The translations under genes and the position numbers were made by a program. Under the pieces are notes generated by a model, which saw only the letters and a program-made list of their open reading frames with translations, had not been told where the DNA came from and did not search any database. Below, piece by piece: positions 17,195 to 26,271 of a stretch of DNA of 64,000 bases. Position 1 is the stretch's first letter. Each line of letters begins with the position of its first letter. The DNA is taken from the sequence record MH051917; one strand, 5' to 3'. The DNA is from Enterobacteria phage vB_EcoM_IME341.

Positions 17195-17968
17195 TTAATC
17201 ATCTAAAAAAGCATCATCAAATGCTGTAGGAGGAGCATCCTCTCCTCGGCCATTAATTACAACATAAGGATGTACGAATTCTGCAGCTTCGGCATTAATC
17301 TCATTGACCTCTTCGTATTGAATGTCGGAGATATCAGCCAACCCGTCGATATTCTTAACAGGCATTAAATCAAGCTCACTGAATTCGGGAATATTAATAC
17401 CTTCATTTCTCTGTAATTCAGGACGAAGTTCTTCACCGTTGTAAATGAACTTGGTAGCAGTGATTCGACGCTGGACGTTAGCACCCACTTGATAGAATGG
17501 GTCATAAGGTTGAACCCAGTTAATTTCGAATAGGCTGTTGTCCATTGGGAAATAAATCAAGTCGCCTGAAACAGGTTCAGTGCCATTGCATTGATGTTTA
17601 AAAAGGTTAGGGTTAATTGTGATTGTTACCTCATCATTAACCATCATACCGAACTTACTGAAATAAGTATTGTCACCGGAATAACCTTCAAAGGAATCCA
17701 AATATCCTGCAAACTTCCAGGCTTTAGTAAATTTGTTCTGAAGGTCTTCGCCAAATAGCTGGTCAGGTTTAACGTATTCACGTGGTATATAATAAAGCTC
17801 AATACCACGCATTTGAATAGACTCAGCAACTAAAGCATCAGCCAATGTTTGGGTATTCTCATGCTTATAAAAGTTGACGAAAGGGTTCATTATTTCAGTT
17901 TCGTTCGTGTTAGCATAGCCAGTATTATCTTCTAGCTTAGCGAATAAACTCGAATCGAAAGTAGCCAT
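17195..17968 (-). CDS. 14: neck protein gp14
   Basis: 257 aa; synteny. Confidence 0.8.
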
Positions 17969-17970
17969 AA

Positions 17971-18903
17971 TTATCCAATTAAAATAGGTGTTGGTGGGTC
18001 GAGTAAATCTAATTCTTCACGAAGACGTTCTTTTTCTAAACGAGCCTCTTCAATCAATCGAATACCGTCTACGGTGGTTCCGCCTGCAAGTTGCATGCCT
18101 TGGTGTTTGGCCAAAATATTACCATTGACTTCTTTAACCAGTGCCGTAGCATAATCTTTAACCCAACGGTTATTATATGCACCATCTTGAAGACCAAGGT
18201 CCTCACCTACACGCATACCAGAAATACGACGTGACGGGTTATCCCAAACAGCACCCGGGCTCCATGCATCTTCACCACAAGCTGAAGCATAACCATATCC
18301 TACAGTATTTCCTACCATAGAATCCACTCCATTAAAAGAGCGAGTATAAACTTCAATTACAATAAAATCGCCTTTAACAAAGTTACCCATTACCTTCAAC
18401 TGTTCAGTGGCATCGTTATACCAATAATCAGGTAGTGGAACCAAAAGGTCCTGCATCATAGAACGATATTGCATTAATTGTGTAAAATAACCAAGGTCAG
18501 CACCAAAGGCATTAGGTCCGAAGCTATTACATGAAGACCCTAACCCACCATTAATTCCGGCTAGGCCTAATACAAAATCAGTAAACCACGGATAAGTTGC
18601 TTGCCCGTCCATAGATGTTAAAGAACCCACGTTGGTTCTCAAAATTTGTGTTACTGCAAATATATTACGTCCTTTAAGGTCAAACACTCCATTACGGAAT
18701 TTTTCTTCATCATCATGACCGATATAAAAAGCCTGATAACCTTTGTTATACCCATTATAATGATACTCGCCGTAGAGCTCTAGGGCGCGCTGGATGCAAT
18801 CGTATACTTGGTCTGTAGTTACTTCAATATTTGTAATCGGCGCACCCAGGCGGCGCAGAATAGCGTCCTTGAGTTGCTTAGGGTTAAATGATTCACTTGC
18901 CAT
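17971..18903 (-). CDS. 13: neck protein gp13
   Basis: 310 aa; synteny. Confidence 0.8.
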
Positions 18904-18924
18904 ATTTTATTCCTCTAATAACCG

Positions 18925-18932
18925 TATTTATA
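18925..18932 (-). promoter_or_regulatory. late promoter TATAAATA for gp13
   Basis: TATTTATA on plus strand 22 nt upstream of gp13 ATG. Confidence 0.6.
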
Positions 18933-18933
18933 G

Positions 18934-18953
18934 CAAAAAAAGGGCCGAAGCCC
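18934..18953 (-). terminator. intrinsic terminator after wac
   Basis: GGGC-TTCG-GCCC hairpin followed by 7-8 U on minus strand. Confidence 0.75.
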
Positions 18954-18958
18954 TTTTA

Positions 18959-21358
18959 TTATGGTGCTGAGTTTAAAGTCACAAAATCTGACAATAGAAC
19001 CCATGCATTATCAACCAGAACATACGGAAGTCCATCAGCTGCAGGAGCAACAGGAGGGCGTTTAGCCAACTCAGTTTCTAGTGCAGTGATTTTACCTTCA
19101 GCCGCAGTTAAACGGGTTCCTAAATCAGCAACTTTATCAGATTCAACTTTAACCGCCGCTAAACCTGTTTCAAGAGTACCAACTTTACCTTCTACCGTAC
19201 CTAAACGGGTATTGATTCCTGCAACTTTATCGGATTCAACTTTAACTGCTGCCAACCCGGTTTCAAGAGTACTAACTTCACCTTCAACAACGCCTAAACG
19301 GGTATTGATTCCAGCCACTTTACCAGATTCAACTTCAACAACACCTAAACGGGTATCGATCCCTGCAACTTTATCGGATTCAACTTTAACATCGTCCAAA
19401 CCGGTTTCTAAGGTGGTAATTTTACCTTCAGCTGTACCTAAACGGGTATTAATTCCTGCAACTTTATCAGATTCAACTTTAACAGCAGCTAAACCTGTTT
19501 CTAAGGTGACAATTTTACCTTCAGCAGTAGTGACTCTGGTGGTTAAAGGAGCTATTTTAGCGGTGTCCAATTTAATATCGGTAATTTCACCTTCATTAGC
19601 AGCTACTCGTCCGGTTAAAGTAACGATATCGCCTTTGTTCTTAGTTATATCAGCTTTAATAGGAGTTAATTGTGATTCTATAGAACTCACATCTAAGGCC
19701 AAAGCAGTAACATCAGAATCAGTGGTATCGGTTTTAGATTCAAGTGCCGTTATTTTTCCGTTAACGGTAACATCACTTTCTTCTAAAGCTGTGATACGAC
19801 TATCTTGCTCGGTGTCTTTAGATTTTAACAAAACGATATCGGCTTTAATTTCTCCTACTGAAGTGTTTAAAGCTCCGGTACGTGTATCAAGAGAAGAAAT
19901 TGAAGTGTCATTGGAATCGACTCTTGCCGTTAAAGCTGATACTTTACCGTCTGTAACCAATAAAGAAGCTTTGACTGCATCAATTTCTGCGGTGCCGTCA
20001 AGGATTTCCTCCCATGCAGCATCTTTACGTCCGTACAATTTACCGTCAGCAGGAGCTTCACCCAATTTAGTAGGCATTTGGGCTTCAAGGCCTTTAACAG
20101 AGTTTATTAACCCTCGTTCTTCTACAGTACTACCGTTAGGGTTGGTTCCTTCAATCTGGTTGGTAATTTTAAGAATAGAACCCTTAATACCGGTTTGGTT
20201 ATTACCAATCTCTGCCTGCAGGTCCTGAATAGTAGAGGCTGAAGTATTACCTTGAGTTGTAAGGTCATTCAAACGTTTATTAATTGTTCCTGCAGCCGGA
20301 CTTACATCGGCACCAATTTTACGGTCAATATCAGAAACCTGGAAACGAAGCCCTTCAGACGAACTATCACCAACTATATTTTTTAGCTCATTAACATCAG
20401 TACGTAAGCCACCTAATCTACCGTTAATAGAAGTAGGGGTATCCGCAGTACCGATAGTGGTCTCTACCGCAGTAACTCTAGGAACCAAACCATTATTAAC
20501 TGTGTTTTCCAAAGTGGAAGTTTTAGTTTCTAGTGTGGTTACTCTTGTATCAATAGAGCCTTTATCAAAACCTATACTGGTCTTGATGGAATCTATTGAT
20601 TCATTAAAGCTTTCAGCAGCAGTTTCAAGAGCAGAAATCCTGGTATACGCTGGTTGTTTACCTACGGTATCAATATGAGGACCTAGTTCTTCGCGAATTT
20701 CGTTAAGCTTAAGACCAAGTTGCCCTACATCAGAATCTTCGTAATTCTTTTCAAGGGTATCTATACGTTGTGAATGGTCGACAATAGCACTGGTATTATC
20801 CATAATGCGACGTTTCATGCCGGTGGCTTCAGAAGTTTCACCTGGAGGAAGCGGCTGGCTGTTTATGTCCTGGTTTGCATAGTGGCCAATTTCAGATTTG
20901 AGAAGATTTATATTTTCTCTGACGGTGAGATATGGGCCATCTAAAGACGGGTCATAATAACCTACATCTTCTTCTAAAAAATTAAAATTAACGGTTAAGT
21001 CACCTAATTCTTGTTTAGTTTCGGAAGCCTTTTCATCCACAGCCAGTATATCGACACGGTTCTTTTCAATTTGCTGAATAACCGCCGTATCAGTAGAAAT
21101 ATCTAGGGCTTCATTAATCAAATTAACGTTATCCACAAGCTCGTTAATTTTGTCTTTAGAAGCTATACTGTTTTCTTCTAATCTAACTACGTTGGTTTGT
21201 ACTCCTAAAGCAGGGGCGTTCAAATTACCGTCGTGACCGTATTTAGTCGTGGCTCCTTCAATACATTCTCCATTGCGTATCCAACGGATACGCTCTTGGG
21301 ATGCATCAGGTACACCATCGACAAACGGAAGTTCTTTAATACTCAGTTTGTCAATCAT
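18959..21358 (-). CDS. wac: fibritin (whisker/neck fibre), enlarged to about 799 aa with C-terminal repeat array and foldon-like end
   Basis: start moved to MIDKLSIKELPFVDG (T4 wac begins ...LPFVDG); coiled-coil; C-terminal ...DGLPYVLVDNAWVLLSDF. Confidence 0.8.
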   Translation of the reverse strand: MIDKLSIKELPFVDGVPDASQERIRWIRNGECIEGATTKYGHDGNLNAPALGVQTNVVRLEENSIASKDKINELVDNVNLINEALDISTDTAVIQQIEKNRVDILAVDEKASETKQELGDLTVNFNFLEEDVGYYDPSLDGPYLTVRENINLLKSEIGHYANQDINSQPLPPGETSEATGMKRRIMDNTSAIVDHSQRIDTLEKNYEDSDVGQLGLKLNEIREELGPHIDTVGKQPAYTRISALETAAESFNESIDSIKTSIGFDKGSIDTRVTTLETKTSTLENTVNNGLVPRVTAVETTIGTADTPTSINGRLGGLRTDVNELKNIVGDSSSEGLRFQVSDIDRKIGADVSPAAGTINKRLNDLTTQGNTSASTIQDLQAEIGNNQTGIKGSILKITNQIEGTNPNGSTVEERGLINSVKGLEAQMPTKLGEAPADGKLYGRKDAAWEEILDGTAEIDAVKASLLVTDGKVSALTARVDSNDTSISSLDTRTGALNTSVGEIKADIVLLKSKDTEQDSRITALEESDVTVNGKITALESKTDTTDSDVTALALDVSSIESQLTPIKADITKNKGDIVTLTGRVAANEGEITDIKLDTAKIAPLTTRVTTAEGKIVTLETGLAAVKVESDKVAGINTRLGTAEGKITTLETGLDDVKVESDKVAGIDTRLGVVEVESGKVAGINTRLGVVEGEVSTLETGLAAVKVESDKVAGINTRLGTVEGKVGTLETGLAAVKVESDKVADLGTRLTAAEGKITALETELAKRPPVAPAADGLPYVLVDNAWVLLSDFVTLNSAP
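18990..19560 (-). repeat. in-frame tandem repeats of about 93 bp (31 aa, VESDKVAGINTRLGTxEGKxxTLETGLAAVK) inside wac
   Basis: about 5 copies visible in DNA and protein, one truncated. Confidence 0.7.
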
Positions 21359-21368
21359 TTTTATTTCC

Positions 21369-22901
21369 TTAAGCAACTTTAATAATGAATAGGATGGACA
21401 TAGTCCAAGGACGGTTTTCGTTACCAATTAACCCTTCACTGTTTAGGGTAGTTCTTGAATCTCGTGAACCTGAACCATCAATTTCGTATCCTTCGTTTGT
21501 AAAGTAAGAACGGTTATCCCAGTCCAGTCCTTTACGAGTACCGGCAAAGTTAGAACGAACGGTATTACCAAATGCACCCGCATTGTCGTGTTCACCAAAG
21601 CCGCCAGCGTGTTTATGGAAACGAAGTTGCTGGGCTTGTACAGTACCATGGCCATATGAACCACAGCCTACGCCTAATCTTGGTTTACCTTTGGCATCAT
21701 TACCTTTGGCATCTCTAATTCTAACGTTGGCATCCCATTCTCTTAATCCGCCGTCATTAGTCTGGTTTGCTCCACGCGGATATAATCCTCGGAAGTCGGG
21801 ACGAGCACCAGTTGAACCCCATTTACTACCAACTACATTTCGGAATCCTTGTTCACCAGAGTTACCACCATCACAAACAGCCCAACCTGCAGGGATATTA
21901 TTAATCTGGCCTCCCCACATAACAATAGTACCGATAGGGACAGAATCTTTTAATTGGTCGATAGTAACAACATCACGCCCATTGCGACGCAAATTACCAT
22001 TAACGTTTAAAGTACCGTTAATGGTGCCGCCTGTGGTAGAAATAACGTTAGCATTATATGCCAATGCCGTATTCCCATCACCGGAACCAACCGTAGTCGA
22101 TAATTTAACAACACCCAACCTTCCAGTAGTACCAGTACGAGAAAGAAGAGTTGAAGGAGATAAAGCTATATTAGAATCGCTCCCAGCCGAAGCTTCTTGT
22201 GGAGTAGCCAATCTAATAATACCTGCTCGCCCTTGGGTAGAAGTTAAAGATTTTAACCCGGAAGGAGAAATTGCCACACCATTGGTCAATGTACCATTTG
22301 CCACTTCGGCATTTGTTGCGATTCTAACAATACCTTCAACAGTTTGGGTAGCGCTGGCATAAGTCGGTAATGCGGATGTAGCGGCACCAATTGCCTGGGC
22401 GGTTTTCAGAGGTGTCATTGCCGTCGTATCATCTGTACCTGCTAGAGCAGCCGGCAGGGTTGAAATCTTGAGTACGCCTGTAGTGTTCTCTGTGGCTAAA
22501 CGATTGGTGAATGTATAATCTATAGTAGCTTTCAAAGACGATGCTACGATTGCAGCCTGGGTTTCTGTTCCAGCAATGGCTTCATCATTAGTGGCATAAC
22601 GGGTGATGCCTACATAAGTTTCTGTTGCTTGAGTAGGAATATCTAAACGACCTTTTAAAGTGGCCGGAGTTACCGCAGAGAAAGTATCAGTACCATCAAT
22701 AACTTCTTGTTGGGTCGCTAATCTAATAATACCCTGTTCTGTTTCAGAAGCCGAAGGTATATTACCTGTAACACCTATAGCGGAAATAGACGCCAATGCG
22801 TCCTGGACATTAGTAATAGAGGGGTCAAAATTCGACCCGGTAGGGTCGAATGTTTTAAATTCTGATTTATCACTTATGTGTTTTAGTGTATTTGTAGACA
22901 T
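21369..22901 (-). CDS. 12: short tail fibre gp12
   Basis: N-terminus ...KFDPTGSNFDPSITNVQDA...LATQQEVIDGT matches recalled T4 gp12. Confidence 0.85.
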   Translation of the reverse strand: MSTNTLKHISDKSEFKTFDPTGSNFDPSITNVQDALASISAIGVTGNIPSASETEQGIIRLATQQEVIDGTDTFSAVTPATLKGRLDIPTQATETYVGITRYATNDEAIAGTETQAAIVASSLKATIDYTFTNRLATENTTGVLKISTLPAALAGTDDTTAMTPLKTAQAIGAATSALPTYASATQTVEGIVRIATNAEVANGTLTNGVAISPSGLKSLTSTQGRAGIIRLATPQEASAGSDSNIALSPSTLLSRTGTTGRLGVVKLSTTVGSGDGNTALAYNANVISTTGGTINGTLNVNGNLRRNGRDVVTIDQLKDSVPIGTIVMWGGQINNIPAGWAVCDGGNSGEQGFRNVVGSKWGSTGARPDFRGLYPRGANQTNDGGLREWDANVRIRDAKGNDAKGKPRLGVGCGSYGHGTVQAQQLRFHKHAGGFGEHDNAGAFGNTVRSNFAGTRKGLDWDNRSYFTNEGYEIDGSGSRDSRTTLNSEGLIGNENRPWTMSILFIIKVA

Positions 22902-26263: not shown

Positions 26264-26271
26264 TATTTATA
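26264..26271 (-). promoter_or_regulatory. late promoter TATAAATA for gp9
   Basis: TATTTATA on plus strand 27 nt upstream of gp9 start. Confidence 0.55.

Follow-up and report, generated by a model that had tools for sequence, protein, structure and literature searches.

The wac gene of Enterobacteria phage vB_EcoM_IME341 encodes fibritin, the protein of the neck whiskers and collar, and does so in a form far longer than that of T4. This raises the question of what the additional length consists of, how it varies among relatives, and whether it matters to the phage. The gene was analyzed within a stretch of 64,000 nucleotides (sequence record MH051917), referred to here as the window, and its features are collected in Table 1. 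The enlargement stated in the initial annotation holds, with 799 residues against about 487, the T4 value being the chain length in PDB 2bsg. Our main reading, to which we give a probability of about 0.8, is that the gene is the wac of a Dhakavirus, a JS98-like T4-type coliphage, and that it encodes a JS98-type two-foldon fibritin with a cassette-variable distal rod. The architecture and the identity of the protein are already known, the first as the published JS98 type and the second as an annotated gene.

Table 1. Features of the wac locus, with positions in the window
Feature	Residues (aa)	Position	Strand	Basis or remark
wac CDS (fibritin, neck whiskers/collar)	799 + stop	18959..21358	(-)	ORF, translation, PHROG 1056, T4 colinearity
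N-terminal neck-attachment domain and T4-like segmented coiled-coil shaft	1-429	20072..21358	(-)	phmmer to PDB 2bsg/3j2o, 1ox3/2ibl
Internal foldon-like motif (foldon-1), TKLGEAPADGKLYGRKDAAWEEILDGT	430-456	19991..20071	(-)	alignment to T4 foldon residues 3-21
Non-repetitive distal rod, ~20 heptads in one register	457-596	19571..19990	(-)	heptad-register Viterbi
In-frame repeat array	597-768	19055..19570	(-)	Tandem Repeats Finder, repeat search, unit table, shuffle test
Unit 1, divergent	597-627	19478-19570	(-)	uncounted in the initial annotation
Unit 2	628-658	19385-19477	(-)	
Short unit, 17 aa	659-675	19334-19384	(-)	
Unit	676-706	19241-19333	(-)	
Unit	707-737	19148-19240	(-)	
Unit	738-768	19055-19147	(-)	
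C-terminal foldon (foldon-2), PVAPAADGLPYVLVDNAWVLLSDFV	769-793	18980..19054	(-)	alignment to T4 foldon residues 4-27
Terminator-like hairpin directly 3' of the wac stop, AAAAGGGCTTCGGCCCTTTT then TTTGC		18938..18957	(-)	pattern scan
TATAAATA, consensus of T4 late promoters, 5' of gp13 (start 18903)		18925..18932	(-)	DNA search
Antisense ORF, compositional by-product, not a gene	446	18888..20228	(+)	stop-codon mapping, relatives

Both position and product identify the gene. It sits between gp12 and gp13, in the order gp12-wac-gp13-gp14 of the late structural cluster, in the window and in annotated relatives, and the window is 97.8% identical in nucleotides to phage IME08 across 24 kb. The product matches PHROG 1056, "fibritin neck whisker", with an E-value of 3e-195, and Pfam Fibritin_C at residues 373-452, and it is identical to the deposited vB_EcoM_IME341 fibritin (AWD92041.1/YP_010094788.1). 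Translation starts at an ATG with AAGGA just upstream, overlapping the gp12 stop codon. The longest mechanical ORF begins at a TTG at 21427 and gives 822 residues, the form annotated in the IME08 record, which is probably wrong. The hairpin behind the stop codon is the sole such site in a pattern scan of 18500-21800, and the 55-nt gap between wac and gp13 holds this hairpin and a late promoter, with no additional ORF. In T4, TATAAATA is the consensus of late promoters. No late promoter was found directly upstream of wac, the nearest upstream minus-strand copy lying at 26264, and wac is probably transcribed by read-through from upstream late transcripts.

Up to residue 429 the protein is colinear with T4 fibritin. 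In a phmmer search of the PDB, T4 residues 5-431 align with residues 6-429 (E 4e-74), and residues 6-84 match the N-terminal T4 fragments 1ox3/2ibl (E 2e-14), identifying the neck-attachment domain of about 50 residues. As in the T4-type fibritin class generally, a parallel trimer forming the virion collar and whiskers would be expected. The T4 chain ends at its single foldon, whereas the IME341 protein is missing the last T4 coiled-coil segment (T4 432-456) and runs 343 residues past a first foldon-like motif. An AF2 monomer model of the full protein, built on a 12-sequence alignment, reached a mean pLDDT of 52 and a pTM of 0.22, and its secondary structure alone was used; its hairpins and helix breaks are no more than suggestive, because this is a poor monomer model of an obligate trimer.

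The first motif, foldon-1, lies approximately where T4 fibritin ends. It is the main architectural feature and had been missed in the initial annotation, which was right about the repeat array and about a foldon-like C-terminus. A foldon motif scan over six-frame translations of the whole window returned two matches only, both in wac, at residues 430-456 and 769-793. HMMER aligned foldon-1 to the T4 foldon in the whole-protein search against the PDB, and the PDB matches of a 44-residue stretch containing it were almost all foldon chains or foldon tags, with E-values (0.02-0.9) that are marginal because only about 20 residues are involved. It is without the C-terminal VLLSTFL portion of the T4 foldon. 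Foldon-1 stands at residue 435 in all 15 Dhakavirus proteins and is slightly degenerate in five Gaprivervirus proteins; across 20 relatives R444 is invariant and A435, P436, D438, K440, Y442 and W449 are nearly so, while AF2 places a beta-hairpin of low confidence at 442-451. Its adoption of a foldon-like fold inside the fibre is putative. The C-terminal motif, PVAPAADGLPYVLVDNAWVLLSDFV, aligns to the T4 foldon. Its top PDB match is fibritin M (1avy), followed almost exclusively by foldon chains, and the E-value of 0.007 is marginal because the motif is short. Foldon-2 is nearly invariant across all relatives compared, and AF2 gives it a hairpin at 779-788. The E5-R15 pair, which has a salt-bridge role in the T4 foldon, reads as V770/L781 here. 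Both motifs are kept even in the shortest natural forms (C6, 514 aa; Bp7, 529 aa; RZ, 543 aa).

Between the two motifs lies a distal rod of about 312 residues, made of about 140 residues of unbroken heptads and then the repeats, and capped by foldon-2. The extra length had been ascribed largely to the repeats; these account for 141-172 of the 312 extra residues, about half, and the remainder is non-repetitive coiled coil. In this remainder a heptad-register Viterbi, which is our own crude scoring and not a validated coiled-coil predictor, found zero register changes from about residue 458 to 598. AF2 gives a single helix at 455-592 (pLDDT 64-73, the best portion of a poor model), and the Pfam coiled coil DUF7310 matches residues 450-506 barely above the cut-off. 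In the Pfam domain search of the wac protein, nothing but coiled coil was detected in the distal rod.

The in-frame array of 93 bp or 31 residues, with one unit of 17 residues, is borne out, and it amounts to five full units, including a divergent first one, plus the short unit. Tandem Repeats Finder reported a period of 93 with scores of 290-309, and derived periods of 51 and 144; a repeat search spaced the copies by 93, 51, 93 and 93 nt. The better-conserved units share 20-27 of 31 residues and 63-77 of 93 nucleotides. Residues 454-768 contain 103 self-matches at lag 31, against an average of 38 for the highest count at any lag in 1000 shuffles, none of which went above 51. These are head-to-tail, in-frame units of significant similarity, that is, a coding minisatellite, and the shuffle test and unit table exclude the possibility, raised at the outset, that the units are not homologous. 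They differ at 11-18 of 31 third codon positions and are therefore old, diverged copies instead of collapsed or duplicated reads. Nucleotide identity among them is 63-83%, with a longest exact repeat inside the array of 29 nt, which argues for a modest rate of copy-number mutation. The array is not hypermutable, its layout of five units plus the 17-residue one being common to alleles about 75% identical in nucleotides.

The units also follow a rule of register. Each introduces a shift of three residues, at K-VES, a unit of 31 being four heptads plus three and the unit of 17 being two heptads plus three. In the distal rods of 21 proteins the sole discontinuities are these +3 shifts, one per unit, for units of 31, 24 and 17 residues alike, and all 21 variants preserve both frame and heptad register. 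Each unit is a self-contained set of heptads plus three residues, and therefore the register is undisturbed on both sides at any copy number. The +3 sites may be stammers in a continuous coiled coil or, alternatively, short loops like those of the T4 shaft. A repeat-bearing coiled coil likewise bracketed by foldon-like motifs was seen in a non-fibritin protein, P0012.

The comparison of copy number among isolates, which the initial annotation had proposed, shows that it differs. Dhakavirus wac products range from 514 to 827 residues, with about 0.5 to 6.5 units, and the rod between the foldon motifs measures 29-342 residues in 15 proteins. A homologue search with residues 421-799 was flooded by repeat words, scoring 8000 candidates and yielding 16 matches, and it missed IME08, JS10 and JS98. 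The 31-17-31-31-31 layout is also present in the independently sequenced IME08 (98.4% nucleotide identity) and JS10 (about 75%). Between the alleles of dhabil (720 aa) and dhaeg (689 aa) the first 1785 nt match at 100%, and the difference is one exact 93-nt unit, the indel junction falling within GTTAARGTTGAATCNGATAAAGT; CLB_P2 has an additional 156 nt. ABTNLS3 and PSD2002 are 99.4% identical with a difference of one unit, and EscoB01 and UP19 are 98.9% identical with a length difference of 93 residues. Near-identical alleles with copy-number polymorphism and unit-exact junctions characterize the array as a VNTR. The comparison shows that whole units come and go through unequal recombination or slippage, for which the site is a conserved box of about 23 nt that opens each unit.

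Short-read mis-assembly across the repeat might be suspected behind the long ORF or its repeat number, given that 93-bp repeats are in principle liable to collapse or expansion and that part of the copy-number differences between public genomes is without independent validation. We consider this extremely improbable, and the artefact that the initial annotation had allowed for is rejected. The units differ at 17-40% of their nucleotides and, with so short a longest exact repeat (29 nt), reads therefore place uniquely; the layout is identical in IME08, IME341 and the divergent JS10, frame and register survive in every one of the 21 variants, and spacer length variation of the JS98 type is known from directly sequenced, expressed genes (PMC3797505). 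There is as little chance that the antisense ORF is a genuine overlapping gene, even though it is long and has an ATG start, and the IME540 record lists a similar antisense ORF as a hypothetical protein. It had been called spurious and a product of the repeats; spurious it is, but repetition is not the cause, and the ORF is three times the length of the strict repeat array. Wherever the antisense frame has a stop within wac, the sense strand reads Tyr, His or Gln directly after a codon whose last base is T or C. Sense residues 454-768 include no Tyr, no His and two Gln, with few or none across 378-799, and the antisense frame is open because the sense strand is nearly without these codons, a scarcity that accounts for it fully. 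Moreover, the ORF is broken in four relatives (CLB_P2, dhabil, dhaeg and C6), with 177-192 residues in the first three and a range of 115 to 449 residues, it begins within gp13 and runs against the entire late-gene cluster, and its product is of low complexity, rich in S, P, T, V and A. It should be left uncalled in annotation.

The other alternatives concern function. Repeat number had been described as an easily changed length ruler for the whiskers, and of this the change in copy number stands, the ruler role being unsupported. The proximal half of the long tail fibre, gp34, has 1299 residues in phages whose wac encodes 514, 720, 734, 772 or 799, in a comparison that concerns gp34 (lengths of gp35-gp37 come from IME08 only), and therefore whisker length is not matched to fibre geometry. 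A ruler matched to the proximal half-fibre was accordingly set aside as unsupported, gp34 length not tracking wac length. A tuned ruler or sensor could take a broader form, in which unit number is selected, whisker length sets the reach or sensitivity of fibre retraction or the contact of the tip with the distal half-fibre or cell, and copy-number change is an adaptive tuning knob. It would fit the preservation of register and both foldons in all variants, the amplification of different units by two genera, independently and at an equivalent place in the rod, the contact of the T4 fibritin C-terminus with the fibre knee (PMC3004832; PMC3797505), and three near-identical allele pairs in which copy number outpaces point substitution. 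Unequal recombination acting neutrally on a tolerant coiled coil would yield the same pattern just as readily, however, and a rod of 29-342 residues among closely related phages, with gp34 constant throughout, is hard to square with a defined geometric target, so that we think such tuning unlikely. More doubtful still is a distal rod that works as a separate functional module (a weak adhesin, an environmental contact or a binding site for virion proteins), with repeats that give valency or binding and not length. The central units differ at 11 of 31 third positions against 5-10 of 62 at positions 1 and 2, and conservation at the protein level despite third-position divergence implies purifying selection on sequence and not on helix propensity alone, but conserved a/d and salt-bridge positions are expected of any coiled coil. 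The arrangement in P0012 also favors a module, whereas the domain search returned coiled coil only, and the natural short forms C6, AnYang, JS98-C3, Bp7 and RZ have almost the whole rod absent, yet are viable and propagated.

A fibritin of the JS98 type with a cassette-variable rod thus remains our reading. This type was reportedly described by Latypov et al. in 2007. It is marked by a pair of foldon motifs around a coiled-coil spacer that varies, and JS98 fibritin folds into trimers without a chaperone (Letarov & Krisch 2013, PMC3797505); the IME341 protein has two T4-like foldon motifs and a coiled-coil spacer of variable length. T4 fibritin makes up the whiskers and the collar, helps the long tail fibres to attach faster and also retracts these fibres (PMC3797505, PMC3004832), with its C-terminus touching the fibre knee. 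It holds the fibres retracted in unfavourable conditions and therefore affects when the phage can adsorb. By extension from T4 and JS98 biochemistry, trimerisation of the distal rod would be nucleated at the C-terminal foldon and zip up from C to N. Where the rod joins the T4-like shaft, foldon-1 would bring the three chains back into register, and it would probably still touch the long-tail-fibre knee as the T4 protein does. In that case the distal rod may be an accessory extension of loosely constrained length. At an assumed 0.148 nm per residue, its predicted length is about 4.6 nm per 31-residue unit, about 46 nm in IME341 and about 4-51 nm across isolates.

A tentative idea, with the odds clearly against it, is that the distal rod of the JS98 type is an evolvable length module under diversifying selection, in which foldon-1 keeps the knee contact and the tip senses elsewhere. 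If this were true, gain and loss of cassettes would retune whisker reach in steps of 2.5-4.6 nm with the register never broken, and the variable tip would touch, for example, the distal half-fibre, the capsid, or a cell or mucus surface. The JS98 type presents a foldon-like motif inside a fibre and a trimeric coiled coil resized by register-preserving cassettes, which is of value in protein engineering, where foldon tags and fibres of set length are widely used. The rods of natural isolates, at 29 to 342 residues, offer a clean series for testing whether whisker length matters at all.

A literature search combining fibritin with Dhakavirus found nothing, one on whisker repeats or length variation turned up only unrelated repeat papers, fibritin goes unmentioned in the IME341 paper, and the word "repeat" is absent from Letarov & Krisch 2013 (PMC3797505). 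Read from sequence, what the present analysis adds to the published JS98 type is the division into units, the rule of register and the indels of exact whole units.

Among known trimeric coiled coils, the P22 tail needle gp26 (PDB 4lin) matches rod residues 501-623 weakly (E 1e-5) and reovirus sigma-1 (PDB 6gap) matches residues 625-755 weakly (E 6e-4); this likeness is one of composition and heptad pattern only, with no shared domain, and we claim no homology. With T4 fibritin (gpwac, 487 aa; PDB 2bsg, 3j2o, 1aa0, 1avy, foldon 1rfo) the protein shares gene position and the C-terminal foldon. IME08 Wac (ADI55480.1) is 98.9% identical in amino acids and 98.4% in nucleotides, with the unit layout and neighbours of IME341, and the two genes differ at 39 nucleotides, 14 of them clustered within 56 nt of foldon-1. 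JS98 fibritin (AAU29287.1) follows the same plan with 4 units in 751 residues; its N-terminal 1785 nt are about 70% identical to those of IME341, whose allele has five full units and one of 17 residues, and JS98-C3 (EU224420) represents a short form of about 514 residues. The Gaprivervirus fibritins (VR26, MN01, TH44, TH15, RZ) share the two-foldon plan, a homologous spacer and the +3 shift per unit, and are polymorphic in length (543-789 aa), with a degenerate foldon-1, DAPLDNKLYGRKQGTW. Their unit has 24 residues (3 heptads + 3), EGEITAIKLDTAKIAPLTTRVTSS, in 1 to about 6 copies, and is single-copy in IME341 at residues 589-612. To judge by the sequences, this sister genus has amplified another unit at the equivalent site of the rod, independently.

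The wac gene of the window encodes a T4-like fibritin that continues past an internal foldon-like motif (foldon-1) into a second coiled-coil rod of about 312 residues (the distal rod), capped by a C-terminal foldon (foldon-2). This reading follows from two foldon matches, the first of which is internal. T4 fibritin residues 5-431 are colinear with wac aa 6-429 (E 4e-74), the last coiled-coil segment of T4 fibritin is absent, and the Pfam Fibritin_C match falls at aa 373-452, mid-protein and not C-terminal. Foldon-1, TKLGEAPADGKLYGRKDAAWEEILDGT (aa 430-456), aligns to T4 foldon residues 3-21, IPEAPRDGQAYVRKDGEWV; against the PDB, this stretch alone matches almost exclusively foldon peptides and foldon-tagged constructs, with E-values (0.02-0.9) that are marginal because the motif is short. 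Foldon-2 (aa 769-793) aligns to T4 foldon residues 4-27, which bears out the foldon-like C-terminus recognized in the initial annotation, where foldon-1 was overlooked. No other foldon match occurs when the whole window is translated in all six frames. In an AF2 monomer model of low confidence (mean pLDDT 52), residues 442-451 and 779-788 are modelled as beta-hairpins and residues 455-592 as one helix. Foldon-1 is also matched weakly (E 0.11) by PDB 8rk3, a DUF2793 protein. IME08 is 97.8% identical to the window over 24 kb. The two wac genes differ at 39 nucleotides, and 14 of these cluster in 56 nt (nt 1314-1369 of wac; foldon-1 region, 19991-20071 (-)) that code for strand two of the foldon-1 hairpin and the sequence after it. 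The gene being otherwise 98% identical, this cluster is either a local hotspot or a small patch of recombination. Each close relative has a different residue after the conserved foldon-1 Trp (AWEEIL, AWSEII, AWAEIL, AWTEIL).

The protein is identical to AWD92041.1 (vB_EcoM_IME341 fibritin) and matches PHROG 1056, 'fibritin neck whisker', with E 3e-195; the phage itself is JS98-like and FadL-dependent (PMC6499177). The longest stop-to-stop frame reaches a TTG at 21427, 69 nt upstream of the ATG, giving the 822-aa form annotated in the IME08 GenBank and RefSeq records. This TTG is probably unused, and the 799-aa ATG start is favoured because of the placement of the ribosome-binding site (RBS) and most other records. 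There are 15 copies of the late-promoter consensus TATAAATA in the window, where shuffling predicts 7.5; 11 of the 15 lie at 4.8-26.3 kb on the minus strand, which encodes the late structural genes. The gp12 gene carries a perfect 15-nt tandem duplication (21685-21713, 1.9 copies, TTACCTTTGGCATCA).

Features of wac and its surroundings (window positions unless marked aa)
Feature	Position	Strand	Remark
wac ORF	18959-21358	-	799 codons from ATG
AAGGA RBS	21366-21370	-	5' of wac ATG, overlaps gp12 stop codon
wac TTG extension	21359-21427	-	covers end of gp12; overlap 59 nt
gp12-like short tail fibre	21369-22901		neighbour upstream of wac
gp13-like neck protein	17971-18903		wac neighbour
gp14-like neck protein	17195-17968		wac neighbour
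Terminator-like hairpin	18938-18957	-	in 55-nt wac-gp13 gap
Late-promoter consensus	18925-18932	-	directly after hairpin, wac-gp13 gap
Repeat unit 1	aa 597-627		divergent
Repeat unit 2	aa 628-658
Short repeat unit	aa 659-675		17 aa
Repeat unit	aa 676-706
Repeat unit	aa 707-737
Repeat unit	aa 738-768

The 31-aa repeat described in the initial annotation is correct. Tandem Repeats Finder gives a period of 93 nt, a separate repeat search places the copies 93, 51, 93 and 93 nt apart, and lag-31 self-identity over aa 454-768 yields 103 matches, against at most 51 for the best lag over 1000 shuffles. The repeats contribute to the extra length but do not largely explain it, accounting for only about half (141-172 of the 312 residues in excess of T4's 487). 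By our own simple Viterbi scoring, a single unbroken heptad register runs from about aa 458 to 598, beyond which the register shifts by +3 once, and only once, in each repeat unit, at the K-VES junction. The 31-aa unit equals four heptads plus three residues, and the 17-aa unit two heptads plus three. The array is not hypermutable, since its units are diverged (63-83% nucleotide identity, 11-18 of 31 third positions differing), its longest exact repeat is 29 nt, and the units of the window and JS10 are mostly orthologous position by position, in genes about 71% identical upstream.

Copy number was compared among isolates, as had been suggested, using wac from the window, 14 other Dhakavirus genomes and 5 Gaprivervirus genomes. 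All 19 relatives carry foldon-1 at aa 435, their foldon-2 is nearly invariant, and the length differences (total lengths 514, 529, 689, 720, 734, 737, 751, 768, 772, 799 and 827 aa) are located in the distal rod. The Dhakavirus series extends from ~0.5 unit in C6, with a like two-piece match in AnYang, fDHCT2, 04086 and JS98-C3 (514-515 aa), through ~1 in Bp7 (without the long spacer), 2 in dhaeg and PSD2002, 3 in dhabil, IME540 and ABTNLS3, 3 plus the 17-aa unit in phage 005, 4 in JS98, 4 plus the 17-aa unit in VR5, and 5 plus the 17-aa unit in the window, IME08 and JS10, to ~6.5 in Esco_phi_B-01. Whole units separate the members of three near-identical allele pairs: dhabil and dhaeg, with 100.0% identity in the first 1785 nt of wac, are one exact 93-nt unit apart, with the indel junction inside the conserved box GTTAARGTTGAATCNGATAAAGT; ABTNLS3 and PSD2002 are one unit apart at 99.4% identity; Esco_phi_B-01 and UP19 are 93 aa apart at 98.9%.

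The Gaprivervirus fibritins (MN01, TH44, VR26, TH15 and RZ; 543-789 aa) follow the same plan, but their amplified unit differs, being 24 aa (three heptads plus three), EGEITAIKLDTAKIAPLTTRVTSS, in 1 to ~6 copies. It corresponds to the single-copy aa 589-612 of the window protein. In all 21 proteins, breaks of register in the rod are +3 shifts only, one per unit. In MN01 there is, in addition, a partial unit of 17 aa, parallel to the 17-aa unit of Dhakavirus. P0012, a homologue-search match with little resemblance to a fibritin (374 aa, 127-kb contig), has two foldon-like motifs, DAPKDGQLYGRQDAAW and DAPQDGQLYGRKDGAW, flanking a tandem-repeat coiled coil, with a C-terminal region of ~130 aa after them; the cassette of a repeat coiled coil between two foldons is thus not confined to wac. 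P0016, another match, is a long fibritin (644 aa) with one T4-like C-terminal foldon and none internal. Its added length is due to another kind of repeat, TALETSNTSLTGKVS-like and ~14-15 aa long, so coiled-coil repeats have extended fibritin shafts on more than one occasion.

T4 fibritin, a 53-nm trimeric segmented coiled coil forming the collar and whiskers, speeds long tail fibre attachment and keeps the fibres retracted, its C-terminal end contacting the fibre knee (PMC3004832; PMC3797505). Repeat number had been proposed as a length ruler for the whiskers; a ruler that strictly matches the fibre is unsupported, because gp34 is constant at 1299 aa whereas wac in the same phages measures 514, 515, 720, 734, 772 and 799 aa. 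The lengths of IME08 gp34, gp35 and gp36 (1299, 378 and 221 aa) are presumably close to those of T4, and on that basis foldon-1 would lie near the point at which the whisker tip of T4 touches the knee, and the distal rod would extend past it. IME08 gp37 has 1289 aa (locus L021, IME08 152104-162551; one isolate) against about 1026 aa in T4, so this lineage may have a longer distal half-fibre. Foldon-2 would nucleate folding of the rod, while foldon-1 would re-register the chains and keep the ancestral contact. The distal rod may be an accessory extension of loosely constrained length, changing through unit-exact unequal recombination in steps of ~4.6 nm per 31-aa unit (at an assumed 0.148 nm per residue). 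Judged from sequence, rod length may be either adaptively tuned or neutral.

The antisense ORF (18888-20228, 446 aa) is present as described and is spurious, as had been proposed, but it arises from the composition of the coiled-coil coding sequence and not from repetition as such. Within wac, stops in the antisense frame all coincide with sense-strand codons for Tyr, His or Gln that come after a T- or C-ending codon, and such residues are scarce in the rod (aa 454-768 contain two Gln and neither Tyr nor His). Additionally, the ORF is split into 177-192-aa pieces in CLB_P2, dhabil and dhaeg, and ranges from 115 to 449 aa among relatives. In the IME540 record (L008 2823-3827), the antisense ORF within wac is wrongly entered as a hypothetical protein. 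Also wrong in public records are the name 'phospholipase' for wac in ESCO10 (OM386655.1) and its label 'hypothetical protein' in CLB_P2 (L002), PSD2002, LHE83 and MN01.

Overall, the initial observation is confirmed and its interpretation partly supported. The two-foldon architecture and its length variability are already published, and the exact protein is annotated in RefSeq: Letarov & Krisch (2013) define the 'JS98-type' fibritin by two T4-like foldon motifs with a coiled-coil-patterned spacer between them, which varies in length among JS98-like phages (PMC3797505). For the variable spacer they cite Latypov et al. 2007 on JS98-C3, and JS98 fibritin is reported to form trimers with the foldon motifs alone (PMC3797505). 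The word 'repeat' is absent from that paper (PMC3797505), and our literature search found no description of 31-, 17- and 24-aa units, each of n heptads plus three, of unit-exact indels between near-identical alleles, of an independent Gaprivervirus amplification, or of the missing wac-gp34 length co-variation. The unit structure, the unit-exact indels, the Gaprivervirus amplification and the gp34 result are modest additions to the known JS98-type fibritin, and not a new kind of system.
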